Assembly (NCBI GenBank): GCA_022072415.1
Contig: JAJVHW010000063.1
Coordinates: forward strand, 12,358-76,357
DNA length: 64,000 nt
Direction: 5' to 3'
Source of the DNA: Planctomycetota bacterium
GTDB taxonomy: Bacteria > Planctomycetota > JAJSAM01 > JAJVHW01
This document shows positions 19,792 to 44,653 of the stretch, one piece after another (within the stretch, counting starts at the first letter, position 1; the number at the start of each line of letters is the position of its first letter). Under the pieces are notes generated by a model, which made no database searches, was not told the origin of the DNA, and was given only the letters and a program-made list of their open reading frames with translations. Made by a program: the position numbers and the translations under genes.

Positions 19792-19882
19792 CCCGCAGGC
19801 TCGCGCCGCGCCGCTCCGGCCGCCCCGCGTCACCGAGGGGCCACATCGCCGCCCCGGCACACCCGTTGCGCCCCGTCGCGGC

Positions 19883-21469: not shown

Positions 21470-21540
21470 CGCGGCGTCGCTGACCTCGGGCCCTCGAAAC
21501 GGAGCCGCCGTTCTCTCAAGTCGAGAGAGGCGGCTTCCCG

Positions 21541-23355: not shown

Positions 23356-23435
23356 CGGCACGCGTCCTCGCCGGGCGCGCTTGCCCGGCGAATTCGTGCG
23401 CATCGTCGGCGCGCGGGCGGAGTTAGGCTCCGCCG

Positions 23436-24923: not shown

Positions 24924-24926
24924 CGT

Positions 24927-25829: not shown

Positions 25830-25874
25830 GGCACGACGCTACGCCCCGCCCGCCGCGCGGCCGAAATAGGAGGC

Positions 25875-27479: not shown

Positions 27480-27714
27480 CGCGGCGACCCGGATCGCGTT
27501 CCGGGTCTCCTCGAACGACGCACGGCGTGCGTGAACGCTGGGTTCGGGACGCGCGGCTCGAACCTCCCGCGGCTCCGGCGCTCACCGGAGATCGTCGGGA
27601 GTCCCAGCGTCCGTCGGGTCGATGCCGTCGGCGTCCGTCGCGACGCGCACCGTCCATCACCGCGGCAGGAGGCTCTCGTCTCCTCCGCGCGGACCCGGCG
27701 CCTCGAGCGTCCCG

Positions 27715-29001
27715 CTACCCCGCCGCGAGCTTCGCCACCCGCGCGTCGACGTCCGCATCGCTCGCGCGGCCGCGCAGCACGTCGTCCACCACGCGCGCCA
27801 CCTCGCGGAACTCCGCCTCGCCGAGTCCGCGCGTCGTCATCGCGGGCGTGCCGAGCCGGATGCCGCTCGGCTTCGTGGCGGGGCGCGTGTCGAACGGGAT
27901 CAGGTTCTTGTTCGCGTAGATCCGCCGCCGCGCGAGGCGCTCCTGGGCTTCCGCGCCGTCGAGCACGCCGCCGAGGTCCACGAGGAGGAGATGGTTGTCC
28001 GTCCCGCCGGTCACCAGCCGCCAGCCGCGCGCGCTGAGTTCCTCGCCGAGGACCCGCGCGTTCGCGAGCACCCGCTCCTGGTACGCGCGGAAGCTCGGCT
28101 GGAGGCCCTCGTGGAACGCCACGGCCTTCCCCGCGATCTCGTGCTCGAGCGGACCGCCCTGGAGGCCCGGGAACACGGCCGAGTCCACGGCCTTCTGGTG
28201 CTCGCCGCGGCAGAAGACGAGCCCTCCGCGCGGGCCGCGGAGCGTCTTGTGCGTGGTCGTCGTCACGAAGTCCGCGTGCCCGAACGGGGTCGGGTGGAGC
28301 CCCGCGGCGACGAGCCCCGCGATGTGCGCGATGTCCGCGTGGAGCAGCGCGCCGACCGATCGCGCGATCTCGCCGAACTTCGAGAAGTCGATCGTGCGCG
28401 GATAGGCCGACGCGCCGGCCACGATGAGCCGCGGCGTCATCTCGCGCGCCTGCCCGAGGATCGCGTCGTAGTCGAGGCGGTCGCTCGACTGCGAGAGCGA
28501 GTAGAACGCGGCCTTGTAGAGCTTCCCCGACTGGTTCAGGCGGAAGCCGTGCGAGAGGTGCCCGCCCTGGTTCAGGTCGAGCGCGAGGATCGTGTCGCCG
28601 GGCTTCAGCGCGGCGAGGTACACGGCGAGGTTCGCCTGCGTCCCCGAGTGCGGCTGCACGTTCACGTGGTAGTCGGTCGAGAAGAGGGCCTGCGCGCGCT
28701 TCTGCGCGAGCGCCTCGACCTGGTCCGCGACCTCGCAGCCGGAGTAGTACCGGCGTCCCGGCGTGCCCTCTGCGTACTTGTTCGTGAGCACCGAACCGAC
28801 CGCCTCGCGCACCGCGGCCGAGGCGATGTTCTCCGACGCGATGAGCTGGAGCCCGAGCGTCTGGCGGCGGTCCTCGTCGCGGACGAGCGCGGCGACCTCG
28901 GGGTCGATCTCCGCGAGCGGCTTGGCGCGCGGGCAGGAACCGGACGACGTGCAGGAGGCCGCGCCGTCGGACTGCGCGGAGTGCGGGTGAAGTGCGGTCA
29001 T
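27715..29001 (-). CDS. glyA: Serine hydroxymethyltransferase
   Basis: LIASENIAS, TNKYAEGTPGRRYYSGCE and TTTTHKTLRGPRGG (PLP-lysine motif). The start is placed at MTALHPH (ATG ending at 29001). The longer 490-aa ORF N-terminus is Arg/Pro shadow. Confidence 0.95.
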   Translation of the reverse strand: MTALHPHSAQSDGAASCTSSGSCPRAKPLAEIDPEVAALVRDEDRRQTLGLQLIASENIASAAVREAVGSVLTNKYAEGTPGRRYYSGCEVADQVEALAQKRAQALFSTDYHVNVQPHSGTQANLAVYLAALKPGDTILALDLNQGGHLSHGFRLNQSGKLYKAAFYSLSQSSDRLDYDAILGQAREMTPRLIVAGASAYPRTIDFSKFGEIARSVGALLHADIAHIAGLVAAGLHPTPFGHADFVTTTTHKTLRGPRGGLVFCRGEHQKAVDSAVFPGLQGGPLEHEIAGKAVAFHEGLQPSFRAYQERVLANARVLGEELSARGWRLVTGGTDNHLLLVDLGGVLDGAEAQERLARRRIYANKNLIPFDTRPATKPSGIRLGTPAMTTRGLGEAEFREVARVVDDVLRGRASDADVDARVAKLAAG

Positions 29002-29051
29002 GGAACGCGCATCGTCGCGCGGGGGCGGCCCGCGGCGGGTAGGATTTCGAC

Positions 29052-29669
29052 GTGCAGCCCGCCGCCCCGCGCACTGTCTGCCGCCGAACCGCGCTCTCGC
29101 GGGCACTCCGGGGCGCGTGCCCGGCGTGCGGTGGGTCCCGCGTGTTCCCGGGAGGGGACGCGCCGCCGCCCGGCGCGTCGGCCGCATCGCGCGCGTGGCT
29201 CCGGCTCGCCGCGGCGTTCCGCCACGCGTCCGCGTGTCCCGCGTGCGGATGGAAGTTCGACCGCGGACCCGGCCACTGGGTGGGCGGGAACGAGATCAAC
29301 CTGCTCGTCACGTACCCCGTGTCGGTCGCCGCGTTCGCGGCTCCCGCCGTCGCGATCGGCCCGAGCTTCTGGACGGCCGCGGTCGGCGGCGTCGTCGCGC
29401 TGCTGCTCGGATTCGCCGTGCACCGGCCGTCGCGGTGCCTCTTCTTCGCGATGGACTACCTGGTCGACCCCGACGACGCATCGCCGTCCGGTCCGCCGGG
29501 CGGCTTCGACAGCGACGCGCCGCCGCCGCGCCGCGACCCGCCGCCGCCGGGAGGAGTCCGCATCGCGCTCCCGATCCCGACGCCCGCGCCGGCGGGCGAC
29601 GTGGAGCGGGTCCGCATCCCTGCGCCATCCGCGCCGCCGGAGCCCGTTCCCGGCGGCCGGTCCTTCTGA
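29052..29669 (+). CDS. DUF983-like zinc-ribbon membrane protein with a Pro-rich tail
   Basis: Two CPACG motifs (CPACGGSRVF ... CPACGWKFDRGPG) are followed by two TM segments, as in DUF983. The C-terminus is Pro-rich. Confidence 0.5.
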   Translation: MQPAAPRTVCRRTALSRALRGACPACGGSRVFPGGDAPPPGASAASRAWLRLAAAFRHASACPACGWKFDRGPGHWVGGNEINLLVTYPVSVAAFAAPAVAIGPSFWTAAVGGVVALLLGFAVHRPSRCLFFAMDYLVDPDDASPSGPPGGFDSDAPPPRRDPPPPGGVRIALPIPTPAPAGDVERVRIPAPSAPPEPVPGGRSF

Positions 29670-29729
29670 GGCCGCGCCGGTCCTGGGCGCCGCCCGCAGA
29701 CGGAGCGCGTGCGAGCCGCCGCCCCCCGG

Positions 29730-30983
29730 TCAGAACCTCCACATCACGATGAACTGCCAACTGTCCTCGATCGGCACCTGGTGCACCACGCCGCCCTGCG
29801 GACGGTCCATCCACTTCACGTAGTGGATCATGAAGTCCACGTTCTGCGTGACCGCCGCGGTCACGCCGCCGAGGTACATGACGCTCCGCGCGCCCGGGTC
29901 GTGCAGCGTCGCCGCCGTGCGGTGCCCGTACACCTGGATCGGCCCCATCTGGTACGACGCGCCGATCGTCGTCTCGGTTCGCTCGTCGCTCGGCCCGCCC
30001 GAGAGATAGTGCGGGTTCCCGCGCACGCCGGTCTCTCGCGCGAGCTCGCCGAACACGCGGAGGGGCCCGGTCACGTACGCCGCGTCGATCGCCGCCGCCT
30101 TCGTGTGCTCGTCGTGGATGCCGTCGCGCTCGATCTCGCCGTACTGCGCCGACAGCCCGAGCTGCACGACCTCGCCCGCGCAGATCGTGCGCGTCGCCAG
30201 CGCGCGGAGGTTGATCGTCGTGTCCTCCTCCTCGTGCGGGTTCCACTCCGGGTCCGCGAAGGGGAACGAGCCGTTCACGCGGTCCTCGTCCACGAACACC
30301 TGCGTGAACGCGTCGATCTTCGTGCGCTCATCCCACTGGTACGTCTTCTCGAGCGACACGCCGCGGTCCGGGTCGAACTTCTGCCCGTTGTAGTAGCCGA
30401 TCGTGCCCCACCAGCTCGTGTCCCAGTCGAAGCCGAAGCGCTTCCAGATCTGCCCCGCCTTGAGCCGGCCCCAGTCGGTGTCGATCCACGCGTAGAGTTC
30501 CCAGAACCACGCGGTGTGGTTGATGAACGGACGGAACCTGTCGTCGTGGTCGCGGAAGCGGAACTCCGCGTGGAGGCCCATCTTCGTGCCGTCGTCGGCC
30601 GTGATCTCCGGGTCGAGCAGCGCCGCGTAGAGCAGCGTCCCGCGCGCCTCCTCGCGGCCGTAGATGAAGTTCCGCCGGTGCTCGCGGTTCATGTGCCAGA
30701 CGTGGATCGCGTAGAGCGAGAGCGGGATGCCTGTGTCCTTCTTCCACTTCTGGAACGCCGCCGACGCGTCGTCCACGAACGTGTCCTCGAAGAGCACCGC
30801 GCGCTTCGGCGGACCGGCGGGCGCCTCCGTCTGGACGACCGCGGCCGCGGCCTCCTCGCGCGCGGGGGCTGCGTCGTCGGCGAACGCCGGCGTTGCCTCT
30901 GCGCCGAGCGCGGCGAGCGCCGCGAACGCCGCGACGGCCATGGCACGGCCCGCCGCAACGCCCGTTGCGTGATGGAATCGCAT
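29730..30983 (-). CDS. Putative outer-membrane beta-barrel porin
   Basis: Start at MRFHH (ATG ending at 30983). Signal peptide ...AALGAEA. The pattern is aromatic-rich and alternating, and the C-terminal residue is Phe (FIVMWRF). Confidence 0.55.
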   Translation of the reverse strand: MRFHHATGVAAGRAMAVAAFAALAALGAEATPAFADDAAPAREEAAAAVVQTEAPAGPPKRAVLFEDTFVDDASAAFQKWKKDTGIPLSLYAIHVWHMNREHRRNFIYGREEARGTLLYAALLDPEITADDGTKMGLHAEFRFRDHDDRFRPFINHTAWFWELYAWIDTDWGRLKAGQIWKRFGFDWDTSWWGTIGYYNGQKFDPDRGVSLEKTYQWDERTKIDAFTQVFVDEDRVNGSFPFADPEWNPHEEEDTTINLRALATRTICAGEVVQLGLSAQYGEIERDGIHDEHTKAAAIDAAYVTGPLRVFGELARETGVRGNPHYLSGGPSDERTETTIGASYQMGPIQVYGHRTAATLHDPGARSVMYLGGVTAAVTQNVDFMIHYVKWMDRPQGGVVHQVPIEDSWQFIVMWRF

Positions 30984-31171
30984 GAGACCCTCCCGTCGGC
31001 CCTGCGCCCCTCGTGCCCGCGGCCCCGGAGCTCCGCGTGCGGCGCACGGCCGTGTATGCGACCGATTGTGCGCCCCGCTCGGAGCCCAAGTCAACGGCGG
31101 AACCCCGACATTCCGGGCCGGAGCGGCATCCCCGGAGGCGCGCGGGCGCGCAGTCGCCTACACTTTCGCCC

Positions 31172-32512
<1,341 letters not shown>

Positions 32513-32611: not shown

Positions 32612-32688
32612 GTCCCCGTAGCTCAGTTGGATAGAGCACCGGTTTCCTAAACCGGGGGTCGGCAGTTCGAATCTGCCCGGGGATACCA
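32612..32688 (+). tRNA. tRNA-Arg (anticodon CCT), CCA encoded
   Basis: The cloverleaf reads directly. Acceptor GTCCCCG/CGGGGAT. D arm GCTC-AGTTGGATA-GAGC. Anticodon stem CCGGT/ACCGG with loop TTCCTAA. Variable loop GGGTC. T arm GGCAG-TTCGAAT-CTGCC. Discriminator A plus CCA. Confidence 0.9.
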
Positions 32689-32804
32689 GCGTCGGGCCGA
32701 TGGGATGCATGCGCTCGAGCGGCCGGGATCGGCCGGCGGAGATCGCGGGCCGTGACGCGGTGTGGTAGCTTGCGGGCACGAGGTTCACCACGAGCAACGC
32801 AACG

Positions 32805-33530
32805 ATGATGCGGGTCGAGAAGTACGCGGCCATCGAGGATGCGCGGGACGTGCCGGCGTACGGCGTGGCGGAGGCGGCGGCCTACCTGCAGATCCCGCCG
32901 ACCACGCTCCGATCGTGGGTCGTGGGGCGCCGGTACCCGGTGCGCGGCGGGAGCCGCCGGTTCGAGCCGCTGATCCGCCCTGCCGGCCGCGACCGCGTGC
33001 TGCTCCTCTCGTTCTTCAACCTCGTCGAGGCGCATGTACTCGACGCGATCCGTCACGTATACCGCATCGACGTGCGTGCTGTGCGCAACGCAATCGACTT
33101 CCTCGAGAAGCGCTTCCACTCCAGGCATCCGCTCGCCGACCGGCCGTTCCTGACCGACGGCAAGGACTTGTTCATCAAGGAACTCGGCCGGCTGATCGCC
33201 GTGTCCGCTGCCGGCCAGACCGCGATGCGGGACGTTCTGGAGGCGCACCTTCGCCGGATCGAGCGCGATGCGGAGGGAGTCGCCGCAGGCCTCTGCCTCT
33301 TCACGCGCGGAGGTCCGCGCACGGCGGATTCGCCGCGGGTGGTGATCGTCGATCCGCGCGTCCACTTCGGCCGGCCGGTGCTCGCCGGCACCGGGATACC
33401 GACGGCGGTGATCGCGGAGCGGTTCAAGGCCGGAGAGTCGATCGAGGAGCTGGTCGCCGACTACGGGCGGAGCGCCGCCGAGATCCAGGAGGCGCTGCGG
33501 TGTGAGCAGTCCGCCCGCGACGCCGCCTGA
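32805..33530 (+). CDS. DUF433-domain antitoxin-like protein with a long N-terminal HTH-like extension (VapB45-type)
   Basis: The C-terminus VHFGRPVLAGTGIPTAVIAERFKAGESIEELVADYGRSAAEIQEALR is the DUF433 pattern. The N-terminus has VPAYGVAEAAAYLQIPPTTLRSWV (HTH-like). It overlaps the next gene by 29 nt. Confidence 0.7.
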   Translation: MMRVEKYAAIEDARDVPAYGVAEAAAYLQIPPTTLRSWVVGRRYPVRGGSRRFEPLIRPAGRDRVLLLSFFNLVEAHVLDAIRHVYRIDVRAVRNAIDFLEKRFHSRHPLADRPFLTDGKDLFIKELGRLIAVSAAGQTAMRDVLEAHLRRIERDAEGVAAGLCLFTRGGPRTADSPRVVIVDPRVHFGRPVLAGTGIPTAVIAERFKAGESIEELVADYGRSAAEIQEALRCEQSARDAA

Positions 33531-33960
33531 CGAGCCGACGTTCTGCATCGACGAGGCGCTGGGAGGCCGGGTCGTCTCCGACGCGCTCGGCAGGGCAGGG
33601 TTTCACGTCGAGCGACTGATCGACCACCATCCGCCAGGCACGGAGGACGCCGTCTGGCTTGCTGACATCGGCCGGCGCGGGTGGATCGTCCTGACCAAGG
33701 TCACGCGCATGCGGTTCCGGCCTACGGAGCAGCTTGCGATCGTGAGGCACGGCGTCCGCGCATTCGCTCTGACCGGCGGCAACATGAGGGCGGCCGAGAT
33801 GGCGGCAGTGTTCCTCGTCGCGATGCCGGCGATGCGGCGGCTGCTGGCGAAGACCCCTCACCCGTTCGTCGCCGCTCTCACGAGAAGCGGCACCGTAGCG
33901 CTCGTCTACCCGAAGTCGACCGGTTCGGCGGCTCCCGCCGGGAGTCCCCGCGACCCGTAG
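33502..33960 (+). CDS. PIN-like (DUF5615 / VapC45-type) toxin-like protein
   Basis: FCIDEALGGRVVSDALGRAGFHVERL ... DAVWLADIGRRGWIVLTKVTRMRFRP follows the pattern of PIN-like partners of DUF433 proteins. GTG start. Confidence 0.6.
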   Translation: MSSPPATPPDEPTFCIDEALGGRVVSDALGRAGFHVERLIDHHPPGTEDAVWLADIGRRGWIVLTKVTRMRFRPTEQLAIVRHGVRAFALTGGNMRAAEMAAVFLVAMPAMRRLLAKTPHPFVAALTRSGTVALVYPKSTGSAAPAGSPRDP

Positions 33961-33969
33961 CCTTCGCAG

Positions 33970-35733
33970 ATGCCCGACCCGCGCCCGATCCCGCCGTCCC
34001 GTGCCGACATCGAAACCGCCGCCGGCAGGCGGAGCTTCGAGCGGGGGCTCGACTACTTCGAGACCGAGCGGGTCGCGTCGCTCGAACCGGCGGGGGACGG
34101 AGTCCGCGCGATCGTCGTCGGGCAGTCGGCGTACGAGGTGACCGTGTCGAGGCGCGACGACGGACTGCGCGGCGACTGCACGTGCCCGGTGGGGTCCGAC
34201 GCCGCGTTCTGCAAGCACTGTGTCGCTGCGGCGCTCGCGTGGATCGACGGGGCGTGGGGCGTGTCGGAGAGCCGGCGGGACGGACATGCGGGCATCGAGG
34301 CGTACGTCCGCGCGCTGCCGCACGAGCGCCTCGTCAAGTACGTGCTCACACTCGCGATCGAGGACGACCGCGTGCGAAAGGACCTCGAGTGCCGGGCGGA
34401 AGCCGCAGCCACGGCCGAGTCGGCCGCGCAGCCGGACGTGAAGCGGCAGAAGAGGGCCCTCTCCCGCGCGATCCGACCGAACGGGTTCGTCGACTACCAC
34501 GAAGCGCACGAGTACACGCGCGGCGTGGAGCGCGCGATCGACTCGATCGACACCGTGCTCGCCGCGGGCGCGGCCGGCGCCGCGGTGGAACTCGCCGAGC
34601 ACGCGCTCACGCTCTGCGAGGAGGCGATCGGCTCGATGGACGATTCTTCCGGGGAGATGGGATCGATCCTCCGCCGCCTGGAGGCGCTGCACCACTCCGC
34701 GTGCGTGGCGGCGCGCCCGGACCCGGCGGCTCTTGCGCGGCGCCTCCATGACTGGCGGTTGCGGACCGGGTACGACGTCTTCCACCACTTCCCCCTGCAG
34801 TACGCCGACGTGCTCGGCCCCGCCGGACTCGCCGTGGCGGAGTCGCTCCTCCGCGAAGCGTGGGAGCGGCTGCCCGCCCTGCGACCCGGGGCGGACTCGA
34901 GAGAGCGGTGGGGCGAGCGGTACAAGCTCCAGAGCGGAATGGAGGAGTTCGCGACGCTCTCGGGAGACACGGACCGGCTGGTCGCCGTGATGCAGAAGGA
35001 CCTCTCGGTGCCGTACAACTTCACGCGCATCGCCGACGTGCTGCGCCGCGCCGGGCGGACCGCCGACGCCATCGCGTGGTGCGAGCGGTGCCGGACCGAG
35101 CTCGAGAACGAGCGCCACGATCCGCGCCTGATCGAACTCCTCGCCGCCCTCTACGCGGAGTCCGGCCGCGCCGAAGACGGGCTGGGTCTCCTCTGGCGGG
35201 CGTTCGACGAGAAGCCGGGTGCCGCCGAGTACGGGCGGTTCCGCGAGCACGCGACGGCCGCGAAGGCGTGGCCTGCGTGGCGGGACCGGGCCATCGCGCG
35301 CCTCGAGCGGCAGGTCCGCGAACGCTGCCGGAAGGACGGTTCGCCGCGGGCGGGAGAACGGCACTGGGACGCATCGTCGGCGCGCGACACGCTGGTGCGT
35401 GCGCTCCTCGGCGAGGGTCGGCGCGACGCCGCATGGAGGGTGGCGCACGAGGGAGAGTGCGGGGAGGGCATCTGGACCGAACTCGCGGCGTCGCGCGAGT
35501 CCGACGATCCGGCCGGCGCCATCGAAGCATGGGGGCGCGTCCTGGCACCGCTCCTCGCCCACGCCAGCCCGTCGACCTATCTGCGCGCGGCCCAACTCGT
35601 GGCCCGCGTGCGCGGACTCCATGCCCGCGCGTCCGGAGCCGACGCCGCCGCGCAGTACGTCGCCGGCGTCCGCGAGGCATGCAAGCGAAGGTCGAGATTC
35701 CTGAAGGAACTCGACGCGGCGCTCCGGCGGTGA
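33970..35733 (+). CDS. SWIM zinc-finger protein with a long alpha-helical C-terminal region
   Basis: SWIM motif CTCPVGSDAAFCKHCVAAAL (CxC...CxH) sits near the N-terminus after a beta-rich segment. A ~480-aa helical region follows. The start lies 9 nt after the upstream stop. Confidence 0.75.
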   Translation: MPDPRPIPPSRADIETAAGRRSFERGLDYFETERVASLEPAGDGVRAIVVGQSAYEVTVSRRDDGLRGDCTCPVGSDAAFCKHCVAAALAWIDGAWGVSESRRDGHAGIEAYVRALPHERLVKYVLTLAIEDDRVRKDLECRAEAAATAESAAQPDVKRQKRALSRAIRPNGFVDYHEAHEYTRGVERAIDSIDTVLAAGAAGAAVELAEHALTLCEEAIGSMDDSSGEMGSILRRLEALHHSACVAARPDPAALARRLHDWRLRTGYDVFHHFPLQYADVLGPAGLAVAESLLREAWERLPALRPGADSRERWGERYKLQSGMEEFATLSGDTDRLVAVMQKDLSVPYNFTRIADVLRRAGRTADAIAWCERCRTELENERHDPRLIELLAALYAESGRAEDGLGLLWRAFDEKPGAAEYGRFREHATAAKAWPAWRDRAIARLERQVRERCRKDGSPRAGERHWDASSARDTLVRALLGEGRRDAAWRVAHEGECGEGIWTELAASRESDDPAGAIEAWGRVLAPLLAHASPSTYLRAAQLVARVRGLHARASGADAAAQYVAGVREACKRRSRFLKELDAALRR

Positions 35734-35867
35734 CGGATACGCGTCGAACCAGGCCTCTCTGATTCGCTGGACGCTTCGAAGGCGCCCCCGCGCGACCTCC
35801 CGCCGCGCGTGTTGACGCGGCGGCGGATACAGCGCTTGGAGAGCGCCAGATAGGGTGTCGCTGCCGG

Positions 35868-36125
35868 TCAGCACCGGACCGTCTCCACGAGCGCGTCCAG
35901 CGCGGCCCGGGCGCGCTCGTCGGTCTCGTCGCGCAGGCTGAGCCGCAGCGAGAGCGGGTCCACGATGTCGCTCTCGGTCAGAAGGAGCGGGTCGTACGCC
36001 CACGCCTCGACCACGGTTGCCGGCTCATCGTCGGGTGCGCCGTCGAGCACCGCCCGACTCGCGAGCGCATGACTCAGCGCGCGTCGGCCGACCGAGACGG
36101 TCCTCGCGCGCGGCTCACCGAGCAT
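35868..36125 (-). pseudogene. Small ORF or gene remnant (85 aa), possibly the C-terminal piece of an AbiEi-like antitoxin
   Basis: GC3 is high in this frame. The open frame is closed by a stop only 11 codons upstream of the ATG. The tail DIVDPLSLRLSLRDETDERARAALDALVE is reminiscent of AbiEi-family C-termini, a weak recollection from memory. Confidence 0.3.
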
Positions 36126-36252
36126 CGCCTTCCGCGCGAGCGCGGTCAGCCCCGCGTCGAGGGCGGTCCGATGCGCCTCTGGTCACCGGGTTCAATACTG
36201 CGGCGCCCGTTTCCGTGCGTCGTCCGCTCGCGGAAGAGGGGATCATCGCGAG

Positions 36253-37170
36253 ATGTCCGAGCAGCGCCCAGGTGCGGGGCCGATCGACCTTCAATGGCTT
36301 CGCAACCGATTCGCCAGCCTGAACCGCTCGCGCGACGGGCCCGAACTTGCGCCACACAAGCCGCTCGCGCTGCTGGCGGCGTTGGGGAACGCGCAGCGGG
36401 GCGACCGCTCGATCCGGTTCAACGAACTAGGCCACACTCTGCGTCGCCTGATCCATTCGTTCGGTGGCGCGCACTGGGACAGCGGAAACGTGCGCGATCC
36501 GATCTGGAGGCTGCAGACCGACGGGATCTGGCAGGTGTCCGACGTGCATCGGATCGAGATGGAGGCGAGCAAGCGCCGGCCGAGCGTGGTGTCGTTGCGC
36601 CACGTGAATCCGGAGACGTACTTCACGACCGAGGTCGTCGATGCGTTTCGCAGCCATCCCGAGTGGATCGCGGTGCTCGCGCGAGACCTTCTCGATGCGA
36701 ACTTCTCGCCGTCGCTGCACGCTGCCATCGCGCACGCTGCAGGCATCGTGCTGGCGCCGCACCGCGTCAGCCGAACCGCGCTCGCCCGCGATGCGAAGTT
36801 CCGGAATGTGGTCCTGGACGCCTACGGGTCGCGATGCGCGATCTGCGGATACGACGATCAGCTCGGTGGCGATCCTCTCGCCCTCGAGGCGGCGCACGTC
36901 CAGTGGCACTGCGCGGGCGGCCCTTCGACTCTCGCCAACGGACTCTGCCTCTGTGCGATCCATCACGTCGCGTTCGACAGCGGCGCGCTGTGCATCTCGA
37001 CCGAGCGCGTGGTCGTGGTGTCCGCCGACGTGAAGTCCGGCGCGAGAGGGTCGGCCACGCTCGCCGGATTCAGCGGTCGCCCCTTGGCATCCCCTCGCCA
37101 TGGCGATGCTGTTTCGCAAGGCTTCCTGGAGTGGCATCGGAAGGTTCGGTTCCGGGAACCGGCAGCCTGA
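36253..37170 (+). CDS. Phosphorothioate-DNA-sensing SBD-HNH type IV restriction endonuclease homologue (ScoMcrA/SprMcrA-like)
   Basis: N-terminus APHKPLALLAALGNAQRG...IRFNEL and DPIWRLQTDGIWQV (sulfur-binding-domain-type region). C-terminal HNH: CAICGYDDQLGGDPLALEAAHVQWHCAGGPSTLANGLCLCAIHHVAFDSG. It ends with FLEWHRKVRF, as in this family. Confidence 0.8.
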   Translation: MSEQRPGAGPIDLQWLRNRFASLNRSRDGPELAPHKPLALLAALGNAQRGDRSIRFNELGHTLRRLIHSFGGAHWDSGNVRDPIWRLQTDGIWQVSDVHRIEMEASKRRPSVVSLRHVNPETYFTTEVVDAFRSHPEWIAVLARDLLDANFSPSLHAAIAHAAGIVLAPHRVSRTALARDAKFRNVVLDAYGSRCAICGYDDQLGGDPLALEAAHVQWHCAGGPSTLANGLCLCAIHHVAFDSGALCISTERVVVVSADVKSGARGSATLAGFSGRPLASPRHGDAVSQGFLEWHRKVRFREPAA

Positions 37171-37248
37171 GCCGACGTCTCTCGTGCGATCGGCGCCGCA
37201 CGCGAGCGGATGGTCCCCGTCGCGGGCCGGGGAGGCGTCGGGCTGCCG

Positions 37249-38745
37249 TTACCCTCCGCGGAGTCTTCGCACGCGAACCACCTGGCGCGACACGTGGTCG
37301 CCGTTCAGGCCGCGCACGTCGAACACCGGAGCGTCGAAGCCGAGGATGCGCGACTCGACGAGCACGGCGGCGGAGATGGACGCGCCCGGCGGGGACGACC
37401 TGTGGGGCGCCGGCGGCGCGGCGGGGTCCGAGCCCCGGCCGATCTCGTAGACGCGCATCGAGCAATCCACCGGCGGCGGCTCGGGGAAGCCGGGCGGGCG
37501 GACGAAGCGGCGGGGGTTGGCTTCGTCCCAGCGACGGTCTGCTGCGTCGAGCGCTGCGTCGAGTTCGGCGGGGAGCGCCGTCGGGGCCGAGGCGAGCGCG
37601 TGCTCGCCCACGATCGTGATCGTGTCGCGGTCGCGCCGGACGAACGCGCCGTGGACCGCGCCGAAGTCGCCGACAAGCCGGGTGTGGGGGCCGAAGGGCG
37701 ACGGCCAGTCGGGGAGCGGGGGGAGCGGGATGGCGGCGATCGGGGTGTTCGCCGACGTCTGCGGGATCCGGGGCCCCTGCGGTTGCATGCGGATCGCCAT
37801 GCGCATCGCGAGGATGCCGTCTTCGAACGACGTCTCGGCGGTGATGCCCGGCGGTCCGTCCGGAGTGTCGAGGTCGCTGCTCTCCGATGTGTCGGGGCTC
37901 GGCGGCGGGGGCGGATGCCGCAGCAACCGCTCGACCTCGCGCCGCACTGCGGCGACGGCTTCGTCCCGCGTCGCGCCCAACCCGACCGCGCGTCCGGTCC
38001 ACCCGTCGGCCGCGACCCAGCGCGCCTCCGGGGGGATCGCCACTCCGAAGAGCGCCATGCGGAACGCAAGGAGTGCGCAGTTCCACGCGCCGAGCGGGCC
38101 GCCGGGAAGCCGTACCGGCATGAGGAGCCGCCCGGGACCGTGCCGTGTCGTGTCCACGGATGCGACGAACCCCGCCAGCAGTTCCATCGGAGCCGCGCTT
38201 CGAGCGGCGAGCGCCGGGATCACGCCGGCAAGCGCCTCGCGGGGCGGGGAACTCGACGACGTCTCGAACCACCGGCCGTCGCCGCCGTACCGGACCGCCA
38301 CCTCCTGCCTCCCGTCGCGGAGCTCGAGCCGTCCCGGCCCGAGTCCGCGGAGTCGCGGCGCGACGCCCGGACGCGGAGGGATCTCCACGTACACGCCCGG
38401 CACGCTCGTGAGCGCGGGTGACGGCCCGTCCGGTCCGCCGCGGACGACGGTTGCGATCGGCCACGGCGCGAACCACCCGCTTCCGCGGCCGCCCATGCCG
38501 GAGATGCCCTCGGCCTCGCCGCCGTCGTGCGCAGCGTCCGCGGCCTCGCACCGGTAGAGCGTGCGCGCCTGAACCTCGCCTTCCGGCGACGTCCACGTCT
38601 GCACCCACGCCGTCGCTCCCATTGCATCGGCCGCCATCTCGAACATCATCTCCGCATGCACGCGCGTCGCGGCCGCGTCGCGGATCGCGAACGCGGAGCG
38701 GAACTCGTCGTCCGTCGGAAACGTGGGGCGCGGAGATGACGTCAT
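37249..38745 (-). CDS. Hypothetical protein (498 aa), no recognisable domain
   Basis: Long ORF with ordinary composition (W/F/M/D/E present) and high GC3. A Pro-rich linker sits in the middle. No motif recognised. Confidence 0.45.
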   Translation of the reverse strand: MTSSPRPTFPTDDEFRSAFAIRDAAATRVHAEMMFEMAADAMGATAWVQTWTSPEGEVQARTLYRCEAADAAHDGGEAEGISGMGGRGSGWFAPWPIATVVRGGPDGPSPALTSVPGVYVEIPPRPGVAPRLRGLGPGRLELRDGRQEVAVRYGGDGRWFETSSSSPPREALAGVIPALAARSAAPMELLAGFVASVDTTRHGPGRLLMPVRLPGGPLGAWNCALLAFRMALFGVAIPPEARWVAADGWTGRAVGLGATRDEAVAAVRREVERLLRHPPPPPSPDTSESSDLDTPDGPPGITAETSFEDGILAMRMAIRMQPQGPRIPQTSANTPIAAIPLPPLPDWPSPFGPHTRLVGDFGAVHGAFVRRDRDTITIVGEHALASAPTALPAELDAALDAADRRWDEANPRRFVRPPGFPEPPPVDCSMRVYEIGRGSDPAAPPAPHRSSPPGASISAAVLVESRILGFDAPVFDVRGLNGDHVSRQVVRVRRLRGG

Positions 38746-38790
38746 GGCCGGGATCCTACGGGAACGTCGCGCCGGCGGCGCCTCGGCCGT

Positions 38791-40302
38791 TCACCGCACT
38801 CGCGCCGGCGCAACGGCGAATGCGGTCGCACCGGCGGCTTCGCACGTTTCGAGCAGCGCGCCGGACGTCTCGAGTGCGGCGCGGACGGAGTCGCGCGTGG
38901 CGTGGTCCTCGCGGCCTGCGATCGCGAAGACGAGCCAGACGCGCGGGGCCGGCGCGGCGGAGCGGAGGGCGGTGAGGACGGCGGCGGCGTCTTCGGGGGG
39001 TGCGGAGAAGGTGCGCAGTTCGAGCGAGGCGGCGGCGGGGATGCGCGCGGCGTAGTAGCGATAGACCTGGAGGGCGGTCGGGGTGGCGATGACGCAGTCG
39101 CCGGAGCGGGCGGCGCGGGCGATGTCGGCGACGAGGGTGCGGATGTCCTGCTTCGCCGGGGGACGGACGGCCGTGTAGAGGGCCTTCGCGGCGTTCGGGA
39201 GGAGCACCGCGGCGATGAGGACGAGGGCGGCGGCGCGGCGGAGGCGCGTGCCGCGGAGGGCGTCGGCGAACAGAAAGCCGGAGAGAGCGGCGACGGCGGG
39301 TGCGGCGAAGTAGAGGTGGCGGTGGGCGAACGGGTACTGCTGGAGCGCGGAGGCAGCGAGGGCGAGAGCGACGGGGCCGGCCAGGAGGACCCAGGCGGCG
39401 CGCCGGTCCGGTGCGGGGGCGAGCGAGGAGCGGGCGCGAGATCCGCGGAGCGCTTCCACCGCGAGCACGGCGACGGCAGCAGTGGCGACGGCGGAGACGA
39501 TCGCGCCGTCGGGCGGGGCGACGAGCGCGCCGAACGCGTCCGGAAGGTGCGATGCGAGCCATCCGGGGATCGAGACCGGGTCGTGGATGGGGACGAAGTC
39601 GCGGATCCACCACGCGCGCATGGGGCCGGGCGGCGTCATCTGCGGGAGGACGATGCCGTGGAGCACCGACGCGGAGACCAGCCACGGGAGTCCGACCGCG
39701 GCGGCGTCACGGACGCGCACGCCTGGCGCCCCTGCGATCCAGCGCGCGGCTAGGATCGGGAGGACGACGAACGACGCGGGGAAGGAGAGCCACGGCGCGA
39801 CTGCGCAGGCCGCGGCGAGCGCGAAGGTGCGGCGGCCGGTCGTCGCGCGGTTGGCGAGGAGGAGGAGCGCCGAGCAGGCGAGGACGTCCGATGCGTAGTG
39901 CTTCTCGAGCGCCGTGTAGTCGATCATCCGCCAAGCGGTCGCGAGGATCGCCGTGGCGACGAGGCCCGCCGCCGGCTCGAGCACGCGACGGGTCCACGAG
40001 GCGAAGAGGACGAGCGCGCCGCATCCGGCGGCGAAGGGCACGGCGCGGAGCGCGGTCTCGCCGTCGCCGAGCAGCGTCGTCGCGATCTTGACGAGGAGGA
40101 GATGGAGCGGCGGGGCGGCCTGGACGTACTCGAGCGGGCGGAGGAGGTCGCCGAACCCGCGCTCGGTGACGTTCAGAGCGAGGGCGTCGGTGTAGAGCGA
40201 GGGGTTCCACGCGAGGCGCACGGCGCGGAATGCCATCCCGGCCGCCACGATCGCGTGAAGGATGCGGACGTGGCGCGGCGTCCAGCCCGAGTCGTTCGTC
40301 AT
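38791..40302 (-). CDS. Polytopic membrane glycosyltransferase-like protein (ArnT/GT39-like)
   Basis: Start at MTNDSGW (ATG ending at 40302) within the 882-aa ORF. About 11 hydrophobic segments are followed by a soluble C-terminal domain. The pattern resembles dolichyl-phosphate-mannose/ArnT-type transferases. Confidence 0.65.
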   Translation of the reverse strand: MTNDSGWTPRHVRILHAIVAAGMAFRAVRLAWNPSLYTDALALNVTERGFGDLLRPLEYVQAAPPLHLLLVKIATTLLGDGETALRAVPFAAGCGALVLFASWTRRVLEPAAGLVATAILATAWRMIDYTALEKHYASDVLACSALLLLANRATTGRRTFALAAACAVAPWLSFPASFVVLPILAARWIAGAPGVRVRDAAAVGLPWLVSASVLHGIVLPQMTPPGPMRAWWIRDFVPIHDPVSIPGWLASHLPDAFGALVAPPDGAIVSAVATAAVAVLAVEALRGSRARSSLAPAPDRRAAWVLLAGPVALALAASALQQYPFAHRHLYFAAPAVAALSGFLFADALRGTRLRRAAALVLIAAVLLPNAAKALYTAVRPPAKQDIRTLVADIARAARSGDCVIATPTALQVYRYYAARIPAAASLELRTFSAPPEDAAAVLTALRSAAPAPRVWLVFAIAGREDHATRDSVRAALETSGALLETCEAAGATAFAVAPARVR

Positions 40303-40678: not shown

Positions 40679-43600
40679 ATGAGCAAGGACCCCGCGAGGC
40701 AGATCGCCGAGAGCGCGCGGACGTTCACGGACCCGGCGGAGCGGGCGGCGTATCTCGACCGTGTGTGCCGCGGGATCGCGCGGCTGCGGGCGGACGTGGA
40801 GCGGCATCTGGCGGAGATGGACGCCGGGGGCGGGGGCGCGGCGGAGCCCGGGCCGGAACCGCCGGCGGACGAGCCGGTCGTCGCTCGACCCGCCGCGCCG
40901 CCCGTGACCGCGTCCGAGTCCGACACGACGGACAGCGCCCGCGACAGCGCGGCGGTCGACGTCGGCAACGAGAAGGCGGGGGACCGGATCGGGCGGTTCC
41001 TGCTCGTGAAGGAACTCGGCGAGGGCGGGTTCGGCACGGTGTGGAAGGCCGAGCAGGTGGAGCCGGTGAAGCGCACGGTGGCGCTGAAGATCATCAAGCT
41101 CGGGATGGACACCGAGCAGGTGGTCGCGCGCTTCGAGCAGGAGCGGCAGGCGCTCGCGCTGATGGACCACCCCAACGTGGCCCGCGTGATCGACGCGGGG
41201 GCGACGCGGACGGGGCGGCCGTACTTCGTGATGGACCTCGTCCAGGGCGTGCCGATCGGCGAGTTCTGCGATGCGGAGCGGCTGACCGTCGAGGCGCGGC
41301 TCGAGGTGTTCGCGCAAGTGTGCGCGGCGGTGCAGCACGCGCACATGAAGGGGATCATCCACCGCGATCTGAAGCCGTCGAACGTGCTCGTCACGAAGCG
41401 CGACGGGAAGCCGCACGCGACGGTGATCGACTTCGGCATCGCGAAGGCGACGTCGTCGAAGCTGACCGACAGGTCGCTCGTGACGGAGGCCTACCAGGTC
41501 ATCGGGACGCTCCAGTACATGAGCCCCGAGCAGTCGCAGGCGTCGCCGGACATCGACACGCGGACCGACGTGTACTCGCTCGGGATCATCCTCTACGAAC
41601 TGCTCACGGGGACGACGCCGTACGACACGGACACGTTCCAGCGGGCCGTGCTGTCGGACATCCTGCGGATGATCGGCGACGTCGATGCGCCTCCGCCGTC
41701 GGCGAAGATCACGGAGTCGCGCGATGCGCTGCCGTCGCTCGCGGACTCGCGGAGCATCGACGTGAAGCGCCTCGCGTCGTCGCTCCGCGGCGAGCTCGAC
41801 TGGATCGTGCTGAAGTCGATCGAGAAGGACCGCGCGCGGCGATACGAGTCGGCCGAAGCGTTCGCGGCGGACATCCGGCGGTACCTGGCGGGCGAGGAGG
41901 TGAGCGCGGCGCCGCCGAGCGCCACGTACAGGCTGCGGAAGTTCGTGCGGCGGAACAAGGGGCCCGTGGCGGCGGCGGCGGCGGTCGCGGCGGCGCTCGT
42001 GGCGGGGATCGTCGGCTTCGCGTGGCAGGCGGGAGTGGCGAAGCACGAGCGCGACGAGGCGGTGAAGGCGAGGAAGGCGGAGGAGGCGGAACGCAAGCGG
42101 GCGCAGGCGGTCGCCGACTTCATGGACTCGACCTTCAAGGGGCTCGACCCGAGCGCGGACGACGCGACGTCCGGGTCGCTCAAGGAACGGCTCGTCGCGC
42201 GGCTCGAGCAGATGTCCGGCGAGTTCTCGAAGCTCGACGCCGATCCGCTCGCCCGCGCGCGGATCGAGGAGACGTTCGGGAGCACGATGGCGGGGCTCGG
42301 CGCCGTCGAGAAGGCGGCTGCGGCGTACGAGGGCGCGCTCGCCATCCGAAGGCGCGTCCTCGGCGAGGAGGCGAACGAAACCGAGCAGACCGCGCTCTCG
42401 CTGGCGTTCATGCTTCGTCACGCGGGCCGGTTCGACGACGCGATGCAGCTCGTCACGGGCGTCCGCGACCGGCGTCTCGCGCGGGGGCCGCTCACCGACG
42501 ACCAGTGGATCGAGATCGACGAGGCGCTCGGCGTGATCCATGGATCCGCCGGACGCGCCGCGGACGCGACGCCGCACGTCGAGGCCGTCGTCCGGCGGCG
42601 CCAGGCGAAGGGCGGACCGGACACGGAGGAACTCCTCCTCGCGCTGCACAATCTCGGCGTCAACTACCGCGAGACCGGGAAGGTGGAAGACGCAGTCCGC
42701 GTGCTCGCCGACGCGCACGCCCGGCGGATCGCGCTCGGCGGCGAGGCGTCGGCGAACACCCTGCTCACCGCCAACAGCCTGGCCGTGGCGCTCGCGGCCG
42801 CCGGGAGGAGAGACGAATCGGCGAAGCTCTCGGAGTCCGTGCGCGACCGCGTCGCGCGGCGGTACCCGCCGGAGCATCCGCTCGCGCTCCACGCGAACTG
42901 CAACTACGCCGCGAGCCTCGTTGCGCTCGGCCGCGTCGACGACGCGGTCAAGCTCGTCGAGGAGCAGGTCGCGCGCGCGACGGCTCGCCACGGCTCCGAG
43001 GCGTCGGTGACGGTGCAGGTGCGGTGGGCGCTCGTCACCGTGTACGCGGAGGCGAAGCGCACGAAGGACGCGCTCGCGATCCTCGAGGAAATCGTTCCTC
43101 AGATGACGCGGGTCTGGGGCGCGGATCACGAGACCGTGCAGCGGGCGCGCGACGGTCTGCTGCGGTACAGCGTCGAGCACGGGCGCGACGAGCGGGCCCG
43201 CGCGATCCTCGAGTCGGAACTCGCGCGGCTCTCGGCCGACCCCGGGTCCGGCGGCGCGGACGGGAAGTCGGCCGTCCGGATCCGCGCGGAGCTCGCGCGG
43301 AACCTCGTCTACACGGGGAAGCCCGACGAGGCGTTGCGGAAGCTGACCGAGATGGCGCCGATCGTCGAGTCGGTCCTCGGACCGAAGGACTCGGCCTACT
43401 CGGCGGTCCTCCACGACATCGGTTGGGTCCACTTCACGGCGGAGCGGCCGAAGGAGGCGATCGAGGCGCTCGACCGCGCGTGGAAGGCGGCCGTCGCGGC
43501 CGCCGGGCCCGACTCCGAGGCCGCGATCCGGTCCCATCACGCGCTCGGCTCCGCGCACTGGCTCGCGCAGGACTTCCCGAAGGCGGTCGCGATCCTGTCC

Positions 43601-44653
43601 GAAGCGCTCGAGCGCGCCGCGCGCGGGCTCGGGAAGGACCACGAGGAGACGCTCCTGACTTCGCTCGACCTCGGAGTGAACCTGCTCATGACCGAGCGGA
43701 AGGAGGAGTTCCTCGCGCTCATGTCGGAGTGGCTGCCCCGCGCGTGGAGGGTCCTCGGGCACGGGAACGAGATGGTCGTGCAGGTGACCGACGCCTTCGG
43801 CGCCGCGAGCGCGGAGGCCGATCGGCACGCCGATGCCGCGGCCGCCATGGAGTTCCTCGCCGCGGCGACCGCCGCCCAGCTCGGACCCGACGCACCCGAC
43901 GCGCTCCGCCTCGGCGGGAACGCGGCTACGAGCTGGTGGAAGGCCGGGCGGCTCGACAAGTCGCTCCCCATGTTCGAGAGCCTGGTGCCGCGGTTCCGCA
44001 GGGAGCTGGGCGAGTCGTCGCCCGAGTTCCTGATGGCGCTCGCGAATCTCGGCGTGAACCTCCGCGACGCGAAGCGGGCCGAGGAGTCGCTCGCGGCGTT
44101 CGAAGAGGCGACGCGGCTGGCGAAGGCCGCAGGCCCGGAGGCGGCGAGCGTGGTGTCGTTCGCGACGGGCGAGTACGCGCGGACGCTCGTCCGGCTCGGC
44201 CGGAAGGACGAGGCGGTCGCGCTCATGCAGGACGTCGTCGCGGGCGTGCGGAAGCGCGCGCCTGCGGGCGGATTGGCCCTGTCGAACGAGTTCGGCGCCG
44301 TGGCGCCCGTCCTGATCGACGCCGAGATGTGGGAGGTCGCGGAGCCCGTCCTCCGCGAGATGGTCGCGATCCGCGAGAAGCTGGCGCCCGGGCTCTGGAA
44401 CCACTGGAACGCGCGGGCGCTGCTCGGCGAGGCGCTGATGGGGCAGAAGCGGTGGGCCGAGGCGGAGCCCTTCGTCGTCTCCGGTTACGAGGGGCTCGCC
44501 GCGCGCGAGAACGCGATCCCCGGCGCCGCCGCGCACTGGCTCCCCGCGGCGCGGGAGCGCGTCCTCCGGTTCTACGCCGCGTGGGACGCAGCCGAGCCCG
44601 GGAAGGGGCACGACGTGAAGCTCGCGGAGTGGAAGGCGAAGCTCGGGAAGTGA
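40679..44653 (+). CDS. Ser/Thr protein kinase with a TM segment and a very long TPR region
   Basis: Kinase motifs GEGGFGTVWKA, VALKIIK, HRDLKPSNVLV, DFGIAK, GTLQYMSPEQ. A TM segment (PVAAAAAVAAALVAGIVGFAW) is followed by ~850 aa of TPR-like repeats. GGGAGG lies 6 nt upstream of the ATG. Confidence 0.9.
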   Translation: MSKDPARQIAESARTFTDPAERAAYLDRVCRGIARLRADVERHLAEMDAGGGGAAEPGPEPPADEPVVARPAAPPVTASESDTTDSARDSAAVDVGNEKAGDRIGRFLLVKELGEGGFGTVWKAEQVEPVKRTVALKIIKLGMDTEQVVARFEQERQALALMDHPNVARVIDAGATRTGRPYFVMDLVQGVPIGEFCDAERLTVEARLEVFAQVCAAVQHAHMKGIIHRDLKPSNVLVTKRDGKPHATVIDFGIAKATSSKLTDRSLVTEAYQVIGTLQYMSPEQSQASPDIDTRTDVYSLGIILYELLTGTTPYDTDTFQRAVLSDILRMIGDVDAPPPSAKITESRDALPSLADSRSIDVKRLASSLRGELDWIVLKSIEKDRARRYESAEAFAADIRRYLAGEEVSAAPPSATYRLRKFVRRNKGPVAAAAAVAAALVAGIVGFAWQAGVAKHERDEAVKARKAEEAERKRAQAVADFMDSTFKGLDPSADDATSGSLKERLVARLEQMSGEFSKLDADPLARARIEETFGSTMAGLGAVEKAAAAYEGALAIRRRVLGEEANETEQTALSLAFMLRHAGRFDDAMQLVTGVRDRRLARGPLTDDQWIEIDEALGVIHGSAGRAADATPHVEAVVRRRQAKGGPDTEELLLALHNLGVNYRETGKVEDAVRVLADAHARRIALGGEASANTLLTANSLAVALAAAGRRDESAKLSESVRDRVARRYPPEHPLALHANCNYAASLVALGRVDDAVKLVEEQVARATARHGSEASVTVQVRWALVTVYAEAKRTKDALAILEEIVPQMTRVWGADHETVQRARDGLLRYSVEHGRDERARAILESELARLSADPGSGGADGKSAVRIRAELARNLVYTGKPDEALRKLTEMAPIVESVLGPKDSAYSAVLHDIGWVHFTAERPKEAIEALDRAWKAAVAAAGPDSEAAIRSHHALGSAHWLAQDFPKAVAILSEALERAARGLGKDHEETLLTSLDLGVNLLMTERKEEFLALMSEWLPRAWRVLGHGNEMVVQVTDAFGAASAEADRHADAAAAMEFLAAATAAQLGPDAPDALRLGGNAATSWWKAGRLDKSLPMFESLVPRFRRELGESSPEFLMALANLGVNLRDAKRAEESLAAFEEATRLAKAAGPEAASVVSFATGEYARTLVRLGRKDEAVALMQDVVAGVRKRAPAGGLALSNEFGAVAPVLIDAEMWEVAEPVLREMVAIREKLAPGLWNHWNARALLGEALMGQKRWAEAEPFVVSGYEGLAARENAIPGAAAHWLPAARERVLRFYAAWDAAEPGKGHDVKLAEWKAKLGK

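Follow-up and report, generated by a model that had tools for sequence, protein, structure and literature searches.

A probable defence and toxin-antitoxin islet at the 3' flank of tRNA-Arg(CCT) in an uncultured planctomycete

Introduction

The Mycobacterium tuberculosis protein Rv2018 is VapB45, the DUF433-containing antitoxin of a PIN_10 toxin, and the DUF433-PIN_10 toxin-antitoxin (TA) pair has been found in defence islands (Matelska et al., 2017; PMC5499597); fusions of the winged helix-turn-helix (wHTH) domain COG2442 with DUF433, encoded beside PIN genes, had been predicted earlier to be TA systems (Makarova et al., 2009; PMC2701414). Regarding type IV restriction, H116, R117 (a lysine in most homologues), and P165 are the most conserved residues of the sulfur cavity of ScoMcrA, Y164 being conserved in only 7 of 23 homologues and both Y164 and A168 being variable and linked to specificity (Liu et al., 2018; PMC6224610). 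The profile PDC-S62, for its part, comes from the phage-defence candidate set of Payne et al. (2024; bioRxiv 10.1101/2024.01.29.577857), and our literature search found no paper naming PDC-S62 or DUF6880. Here we describe a stretch of planctomycete DNA, positions 32689-38745 of the window (the whole sequence of 64,000 nucleotides, nt, that was analyzed), which encodes relatives of these three kinds of proteins, together with a gene relic and an uncharacterized protein of 498 amino acids (aa), directly at the 3' end of a tRNA-Arg(CCT) gene. We consider this stretch, which possibly extends to position 40302, to be a mosaic and partly decayed defence and TA islet at a conserved tRNA-Arg(CCT) integration hotspot, whose integrase and attachment (att) sites have been lost, and we assign to that interpretation a probability of roughly two-thirds (0.68).

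To our knowledge, almost no phages or defence systems have been characterized in the Planctomycetota. The window is part of a 77-kb contig from a metagenome-assembled genome (MAG) of 3.86 Mb in 174 contigs, with a GC content of 72.1% and a completeness of 76%. Because raw lists of open reading frames (ORFs) consist mostly of noise at 72% GC, the genes were called by frame analysis of the GC content at third codon positions (GC3). The nearest genomes available for comparison belong to the same family and to other genera, no genome of the same genus being among them.

Results

It is chiefly the relatives, rather than the composition of the window itself, that support an islet at this site. Eight relatives, drawn from two families of the order, served for a comparison of the tRNA-Arg(CCT) loci, the orthologous tRNAs being 80-94% identical; five of those loci were annotated gene by gene. 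In all nine genomes (the eight relatives plus that of the window) the 6-kb flank on the 3' side of the tRNA had a lower GC and GC3 than its counterpart of equal length on the 5' side, the deficit being of 1.9-9.3 GC points, where enough 5' sequence was present, and of 2.7-12 GC3 points. Within the window the deficit was 1.9 GC points and 5 GC3 points, the former being the joint smallest and equal to that of one relative, which small difference fits cargo that is old and ameliorated, or else donors close in GC content.

The 3' flanks of the five individually annotated relatives each carried a different cargo of defence, TA, or insertion-sequence (IS) genes, so that the comparison with relatives proposed by an earlier interpretation of the sequence alone (hereafter, the sequence-only reading) found the site occupied by differing cargo at the level of family and order, the same-genus level being without a genome to compare. 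Pooled, the 3' flanks of the eight relatives contained N6_N4_Mtase, PDDEXK_4, GmrSD_N, DUF433, UPF0175, AbiEii, rve, and IstB. A PDC-S26 nuclease of the PD-(D/E)XK type lies 151 nt from the tRNA in one relative (G006), a GmrSD_N/NsnA-like gene is found in the 3' flank of another (G005), and in a third (G004) a homologue of the 498-aa gene, whose 3' end is 262 nt from the tRNA, adjoins a methyltransferase (MTase)-HNH fusion, after which come zwf and pgl. Two relatives also contain repeats of the tRNA itself. In G010 (contig G010:C51; locus L010, positions 1824-1892, 4808-4876, and 5947-6015) the 3' 49-51 nt of the tRNA, from the anticodon stem to the CCA, are present in three tandem direct copies, the two extra ones at +3.0 kb and +4.1 kb bracketing a 3.0-kb insert with an rve transposase and a 1.1-kb insert; tandem site-specific integrations classically leave such a footprint. 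In G002, a 50-nt repeat of the tRNA 3' half was found at 98% identity and at a distance of 2636 bp. The middle copy in G010 has a diverged T-arm, as if it had come from a different element.

In the window, the tRNA-Arg(CCT), which was the sole tRNA found there by ARAGORN and which has a single copy in the MAG (one match in a genome search), ends at 32688, and the first cargo gene begins at 32805, the stretch being thus located directly at the tRNA 3' end. The features are collected in Table 1. The sequence-only reading had listed, in order, a DUF433/PIN pair, a SWIM protein, a coding remnant, an SBD-HNH type IV restriction homologue, and a 498-aa protein, which order the frame analysis and the family scans found to be correct. 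A scan for promoters and terminators found nothing.

Table 1. Coordinates of the tRNA-Arg(CCT) gene, the genes of the 3' stretch, and the adjoining genes, in positions of the window.
Feature	Coordinates	Strand	Remarks
cNMP-binding Ser/Thr kinase	31013-32512		left neighbour of the tRNA
tRNA-Arg(CCT), 77 nt, CCA encoded	32612-32688	+	ARAGORN; anchor of the hotspot
HTH_66 + DUF433 antitoxin-like protein, 241 aa	32805-33530	+	Pfam DUF433 1.5e-12, HTH_66 3.8e-6; GC3 0.893
PIN_10 (Mut7-C-group PIN-like) toxin-like protein, 152 aa	33502-33960	+	Pfam PIN_10 2.9e-15
SWIM zinc finger + DUF6880 helical protein, 587 aa	33970-35733	+	Pfam DUF6880 1.5e-17, SWIM 3.6e-4
Gene relic, 104 codons between stops	35868-36182	-	ATG ORF 35868-36125; GC3 0.884 in this frame
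SBD-HNH type IV restriction endonuclease (predicted), 305 aa	36253-37170	+	NF045808; Pfam HNH_2; GC3 0.814
498-aa gene, intact	37249-38745	-	no family match in Pfam, PHROG, PADLOC, or NCBIfam
PMT_2-like polytopic membrane protein (glycosyltransferase-39-like), 503 aa	38791-40302	-	Pfam PMT_2 2.1e-4, below cut-off; GC3 0.917
Ser/Thr kinase-TPR gene	40679-44653	+	right of the PMT_2-like gene

Two of the genes bear marks of decay. The remnant recognized in the sequence-only reading was confirmed as a truncated gene of a helix-turn-helix (HTH) protein: the relic corresponds to the C-terminal ~95 aa of MarR_2-like HTH proteins of ~300-333 aa, whose N-terminal two-thirds are missing here along with the partner gene. 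A tblastn search of plasmids returned 24 records, from alpha- and gammaproteobacterial plasmids, at 37-42% identity and each covering more than 89% of the relic; the match sits at the 3' end of plasmid coding sequences of 333 and 296 aa, and on the plasmids that were inspected the HTH gene is succeeded by a partner gene that overlaps it. The missing N-terminal part would fall at the place now taken by the HNH gene, and the partner at the end of the SWIM gene. The truncated gene is direct evidence of gene turnover. We also considered the relic as an AbiEi antitoxin, which identification was not supported: the full-length plasmid homologue matched only MarR_2, and the partner had no Pfam or PADLOC match, AbiE included.

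The second mark of decay is in the PIN_10 gene, whose codon 67 (33700-33702) is GTC, encoding valine, at the position where all of the 11 homologues compared (up to 74% identical to the window protein) have GAC, the aspartate of an LTKD motif that here reads LTKV. Though D17 and D49 are retained, the conserved acidic set is incomplete since position 67 is a valine. By analogy with the T-x-D acidic motif of the VapC PIN domains, the aspartate of LTKD would be catalytic and, because this residue of the motif has been lost, the toxin is probably inert, that is, catalytically dead through D67V. The pair accordingly resembles a module in decay of which the antitoxin has been kept.

The main rival explanation is that of an ordinary planctomycete chromosome beside a tRNA, with lineage-specific genes, scattered TA and restriction genes, and little conserved synteny, and a considerable series of observations speaks for that alternative or otherwise weighs against an islet. 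First, the bulk composition is that of the genome: the GC of 32689-38745 is 0.720, equal to the mean of the genome windows (0.720, SD, standard deviation, 0.031), and its tetranucleotide distance is at the 54th percentile of those windows. Second, no means of integration was found. The 77-kb contig contains no match to PF00589 or PF00239, of which the MAG has 18 and 3 elsewhere, and signals of integrases, resolvases, and transposases are all absent from it; nor is there an attR, blastn-short with the tRNA 3' end having yielded no repeat longer than 12 nt in the window or the genome. A permissive local alignment against a genome null gave as its best degenerate copy of the tRNA 3' end one with 22 of 30 identities, which copy is within an intact kinase ORF and is equaled by 7% of the null regions. 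Third, with respect to the nearest genomes, synteny is worn on both sides of the tRNA, 5' as well as 3', and no true empty site was shown among the genomes compared, all of which are from other genera. Fourth, a 5' control gene (29730-31094, - strand; 454 aa, no Pfam domain, a strong coding signal with GC3 0.93) had homologues in none of 150 sampled genomes of the phylum and counts as a true lineage-specific ORFan. Fifth, a defence-catalogue match was obtained for only two of the six ORFs (SWIM-DUF6880 and SBD-HNH), one being the PDC-S62 candidate. Finally, the 498-aa gene of the window and the copy beside the tRNA in G004 are not sisters, so that a common ancestry of the arrangement was not shown.

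The ordinary-chromosome alternative nevertheless accounts poorly for the flank on the 3' side being the GC-poorer one in nine of nine genomes, for the defence, TA, and IS genes of the five annotated relatives, and for the tRNA-half repeats of G010 and G002; a relic and a decayed toxin gene are likewise at odds with it. In favour of an islet there is also the content of the stretch, five mobilome-type genes in a row and a relic, with PADLOC matches for two of those genes. Moreover, the GC3 of all six ORFs of the stretch was below the genome median (11th-43rd percentile), whereas the seven flank genes checked were at the 48th-99th percentile, none being clearly below. Six out of six below the median would occur by chance about once in 64 times, which proportion is a hint and not a proof. 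Of all the parts, the HNH segment alone is mildly atypical, with a GC of 0.682 (11th percentile), a tetranucleotide distance in the top 8%, and a GC3 of 0.814 (11th percentile). All in all, we regard an ordinary chromosome as an unlikely explanation, and an islet that has lost its integrase and att sites as the better one.

The sequence-only reading had proposed an old genomic island without an integrase, of which proposal the island remains the best explanation through the hotspot of the relatives and the signs of decay, its bulk composition being, however, that of the genome. The higher A/T and lower GC3 perceived there with respect to the flanks does not hold for bulk GC and tetranucleotides and survives weakly, as a mild GC3 deficit that is strongest in the HNH gene. 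That no integrase and no convincing direct repeat of the tRNA end had been seen was borne out, the former over the entire 77-kb contig and the latter by the search for a degenerate attR, which found nothing above chance.

Several further attempts and observations concern the site and its limits. For mapping the insertion junction, the intergenic DNA was aligned to that of G004, in which the tRNA abuts the 498-aa homologue; the two are too diverged, and the scores were within the range of shuffled sequences. A metagenome scan with the left-flank kinase gene gave nothing above 45% identity. Two Logan contigs from the sister samples SRR10609167 and SRR10609164 had the same arrangement as the window, at 99.97-100% identity. 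The contig SRR10609167_8440, which is 100% identical, ends at window position 32632, 21 nt inside the tRNA, and this break could be a strain-variable junction or merely tRNA sequence common to several species in the metagenome. On the 5' side, a homologue of the gene at 19619-21469 (+ strand) is located 1-3 kb from the tRNA in three members of the family (G002, G006, and G007; loci L047, L049, and L050) and 11 kb away in the window; on that side too, then, six genes (21484-32512) were either inserted in between or rearranged.

A patchy distribution was tried as an island marker and rejected: the 5' control gene, with homologues in none of the 150 genomes, is rarer than the genes of the islet, of which the DUF433 gene was found in 10 of the same 150 and the SWIM-DUF6880 gene and full-length SBD-HNH homologues (39-41% identical) in only 3 each. 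Because of that control gene, lineage-specific genes are to be considered common outside the stretch as well. With respect to the right boundary, the PMT_2-like gene has phylum homologues at 36% identity at best and none in the three family genomes sampled. This gene is separated from the 498-aa gene, on the same strand, by 45 nt (38746-38790), which spacing makes a cotranscription of the two possible, and no such partner was seen in the other contexts of the 498-aa family that were inspected. The PMT_2-like gene may thus be a further accessory gene, which circumstance leaves the boundary at 38745 uncertain.

The antitoxin-like protein of the first pair aligns with PDB 5af3, which is the Rv2018 of M. 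tuberculosis, likewise of 241 aa, at 1.1e-18 and over residues 13-231 of 241. The PIN_10 gene overlaps the antitoxin gene by 29 nt and is followed after a gap of 9 nt by the SWIM gene. This tight spacing on a single strand, along with the status of SWIM-DUF6880 as a defence candidate, would suit a three-component defence system of DUF433, PIN_10, and SWIM-DUF6880, in which the SWIM protein would serve the TA pair as its sensor or its effector partner. The two-gene DUF433-PIN_10 cassette is, however, kept in three other loci (L012, L059, and L060) and is present with a truncated partner in a fourth (L061), and the SWIM gene is absent from all four. SWIM-DUF6880, in turn, stands alone in the three contexts examined, without a DUF433 or PIN neighbour, one of those contexts being close to genes of nSTAND, an integrase fragment, and ThiF/E2. 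The trio thus recurs in none of the loci examined, and the window toxin lacks the conserved aspartate, all of which makes such a system highly improbable. Because the TA pair recurs without SWIM, and SWIM-DUF6880 recurs alone, the pair and the SWIM gene are independent modules of the islet rather than a single operon-system.

The SWIM-DUF6880 protein matched PDC-S62 end to end in PADLOC (1.1e-31; residues 11-579 of the protein and 11-556 of the 566 of the profile). A search of 5.8 billion proteins gave no homologue above 39% identity, the best ones being from metagenomes, Streptomyces, Solirubrobacterales, Acidimicrobiia, and other sources. In a soil-metagenome contig (L035, 3343-7785), a homologue is encoded beside a RES-toxin gene and two genes away from an HNH_2 protein, which arrangement recalls the neighbourhood in the window.

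With respect to the restriction homologue, the identification given in the sequence-only reading was verified by a full-length match to NCBIfam NF045808 ("phosphorothioated DNA-binding restriction endonuclease"), with 251.1 bits against a cut-off of 180 and over positions 3-284 of 284. The N-terminal half aligns to the ScoMcrA SBD (5zmm/5zmo, 9e-11; ScoMcrA residues 109-279), and Pfam HNH_2 matches residues 195-248 at 5.3e-9 with an intact motif, CAIC...EAAHV...ANGLCLCAIHH; there were, in addition, PADLOC matches to HNH and mREase_IV and a precomputed match to PF26340, DNA-SBD_ScoMcrA. In the alignment to 5zmm, PHKPL lies opposite LHRPV, and RDPIW opposite RYPFW, so that the equivalents of H116, R117 (here a lysine), and P165 are kept, the equivalent of Y164 being an aspartate and that of A168 an arginine. 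We predict from these matches a type IV enzyme dependent on phosphorothioated DNA and having the short architecture of SprMcrA. The MAG contained no match to DndC (TIGR03183) or DndD (TIGR03185), which result applies to a genome that is 76% complete and in which the ssp genes were not searched; this absence of detectable dnd genes fits a modification-dependent enzyme in an unmodified host.

The 498-aa gene was present as the sequence-only reading had stated, but its protein is no orphan. A word-indexed search found 22 clusters at 90% identity, and a full HMMER scan of 1.84 billion representatives found 243 clusters at 50% identity (E<=0.001). Homologues exist in 5 of the 16 other genomes of the order and are multicopy in three of them, G001 having several copies, G004 two, and G010 three. 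The window protein had no match in sequence or profile searches of Pfam, NCBIfam, PADLOC, PHROGs, and the PDB, and a Pfam domain was found in none of the 10 remote members tested, whose N-termini differ. A confident AlphaFold2 model from 27 sequences (pLDDT 79.7, pTM 0.79) has two domains (~1-290 and ~300-498) with a proline-rich linker between them, and Foldseek with this model gave nothing at E<=0.001 in the PDB or BFVD. The window copy keeps all 23 of the family-invariant residues and is on a long branch (0.95 versus a median of 0.24).

The family is uncharacterized and linked to the mobilome, its members occurring in prophages, in TA and defence islets, and at tRNA flanks. In G001, a prophage has a member between its portal and TerL genes; in L046, another is beside tail genes; and in L045, one is found among genes for HicB, PIN/PhD, an SNF2-SWIM helicase, and an AEP primase. 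In L029 and L033, the family member starts just after a tRNA-Asp(GTC), with genes of AbiEi_2 and a MORC-like ATPase, or an integrase, nearby. Because the copies in the window and in G004 are not sisters, the adjacency to the tRNA common to both should not be taken for orthology. The G004 locus was also tried as an orthologous empty site and was rejected, the family being multicopy and mobile and the two copies not being sisters.

Those prophage contexts raise the possibility that the stretch is a prophage remnant, in which the 498-aa and restriction genes would be the morons surviving after a loss of the structural and integrase genes; the HNH protein does, moreover, match several PHROGs without known function. 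Nevertheless, 32689-40302 yielded no phage gene for structure, replication, or lysis in the Pfam and PHROG scans, the 498-aa family also occurs in nonphage TA and defence islets and in chromosomal contexts, and the TA pair and the SWIM gene are each found apart from the other. We consequently hold a prophage remnant to be improbable, and the mosaic islet at the tRNA hotspot to be the interpretation to retain.

In G001, a four-contig planctomycete MAG, a prophage segment of more than 10 kb (L014, G001:C2:878000-896000, and L015-L018) is 100% identical at five contig ends and must therefore be present in at least three copies. This segment encodes a capsid protein, a ClpP protease, the portal, TerL, TerS, and a DNA methylase, and its TerL, of 965 aa, contains an intein-like insert with the LAGLIDADG/Hom_end signature of homing endonucleases. 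The locus L033 (4126-7889), which belongs to a different MAG of the Planctomycetota, encodes a group II intron reverse transcriptase/maturase and a tyrosine integrase immediately upstream of the tRNA-Asp(GTC), with the family member directly behind this tRNA.

Discussion

We propose that an islet has accumulated at the 3' flank of tRNA-Arg(CCT), a site that integrative elements have used repeatedly in this order of planctomycetes. The cargo might have arrived by site-specific integration at the tRNA, the integrase and the attR having been lost later. Five independent modules, rather than a single system, compose this islet: an HTH-DUF433 DNA-binding antitoxin with a PIN_10 RNase-like toxin that is probably inert; a solo SWIM-DUF6880 protein, which might be a scaffold and is a PDC-S62 candidate; the relic of an HTH regulator, left by gene turnover; an enzyme whose SBD would recognize phosphorothioate-modified foreign DNA for cleavage by the HNH domain; and a 498-aa protein from a family that travels in prophages and in TA and defence islets. 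We infer that these modules would act in phage defence.

In itself, this is an ordinary small islet of defence and TA genes at a tRNA, and its value is practical. The tRNA-Arg(CCT) proves to be a recurrent landing site for variable immunity genes in a poorly studied order, and thus a fixed address at which to harvest candidate systems. The islet offers, in addition, a planctomycete example of a putative restriction enzyme that senses phosphorothioates, encoded by a genome in which no dnd genes were detected; a toxin that has likely been inactivated while its antitoxin was kept; and a protein family without a structural match, found in the company of prophages and defence islets. One may go further and suppose, on the basis of the structural model and of the contexts, that the 498-aa gene represents an undescribed family with a new fold, carried as a moron by prophages, that acts in the conflict between phage and host—be it in defence, superinfection exclusion, or anti-defence—and that the 3' flank of tRNA-Arg(CCT) is an order-wide hotspot of defence genes for the discovery of systems; that extended proposal we put forward tentatively, and deem it on balance doubtful.

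When the modules are set against the described systems, they prove to be of known kinds (a VapBC45-type TA pair, an SBD-HNH type IV restriction enzyme, and a PDC-S62 candidate), the only unfamiliar element being the 498-aa family. Unlike VapB45/VapC45 (Rv2018/Rv2019), the pair in the window has a toxin with a valine for the LTKD aspartate, and its TA function is a prediction from sequence; it agrees with the M. tuberculosis pair in the length of the antitoxin, in the wHTH plus DUF433 architecture aligning to 5af3 over nearly its full length, and in the PIN_10 gene immediately downstream and overlapping that of the antitoxin. The predicted restriction enzyme differs from ScoMcrA in being a two-domain protein without the SRA domain of the latter and in the substitutions of Y164 and A168, and resembles both ScoMcrA and SprMcrA in its full-length NF045808 match, aligned SBD, conserved cavity residues, and intact HNH_2 domain; no dndC or dndD match was found in its 76%-complete host genome. 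The SWIM-DUF6880 protein is distant from every homologue found, PDC-S62 being itself a candidate only, and shares with that profile an end-to-end match, a single-gene constitution, and neighbourhoods that are variable and often rich in defence genes.

As to the tRNA-linked genomic and defence islands, the islet in the window departs from these in its lack of an integrase, an attR, and a bulk compositional anomaly of its own, in a size of only ~4.5-7.6 kb, and in a host that is an uncultured Planctomycetia MAG without a close relative, where mobility is inferred. With such islands it has in common the position abutting the tRNA 3' end; a cargo of TA, type IV restriction, and defence-candidate genes; the decay of genes; a cargo that differs between relatives at the same tRNA; and, in two of those relatives, att-like repeats of the tRNA 3' half.

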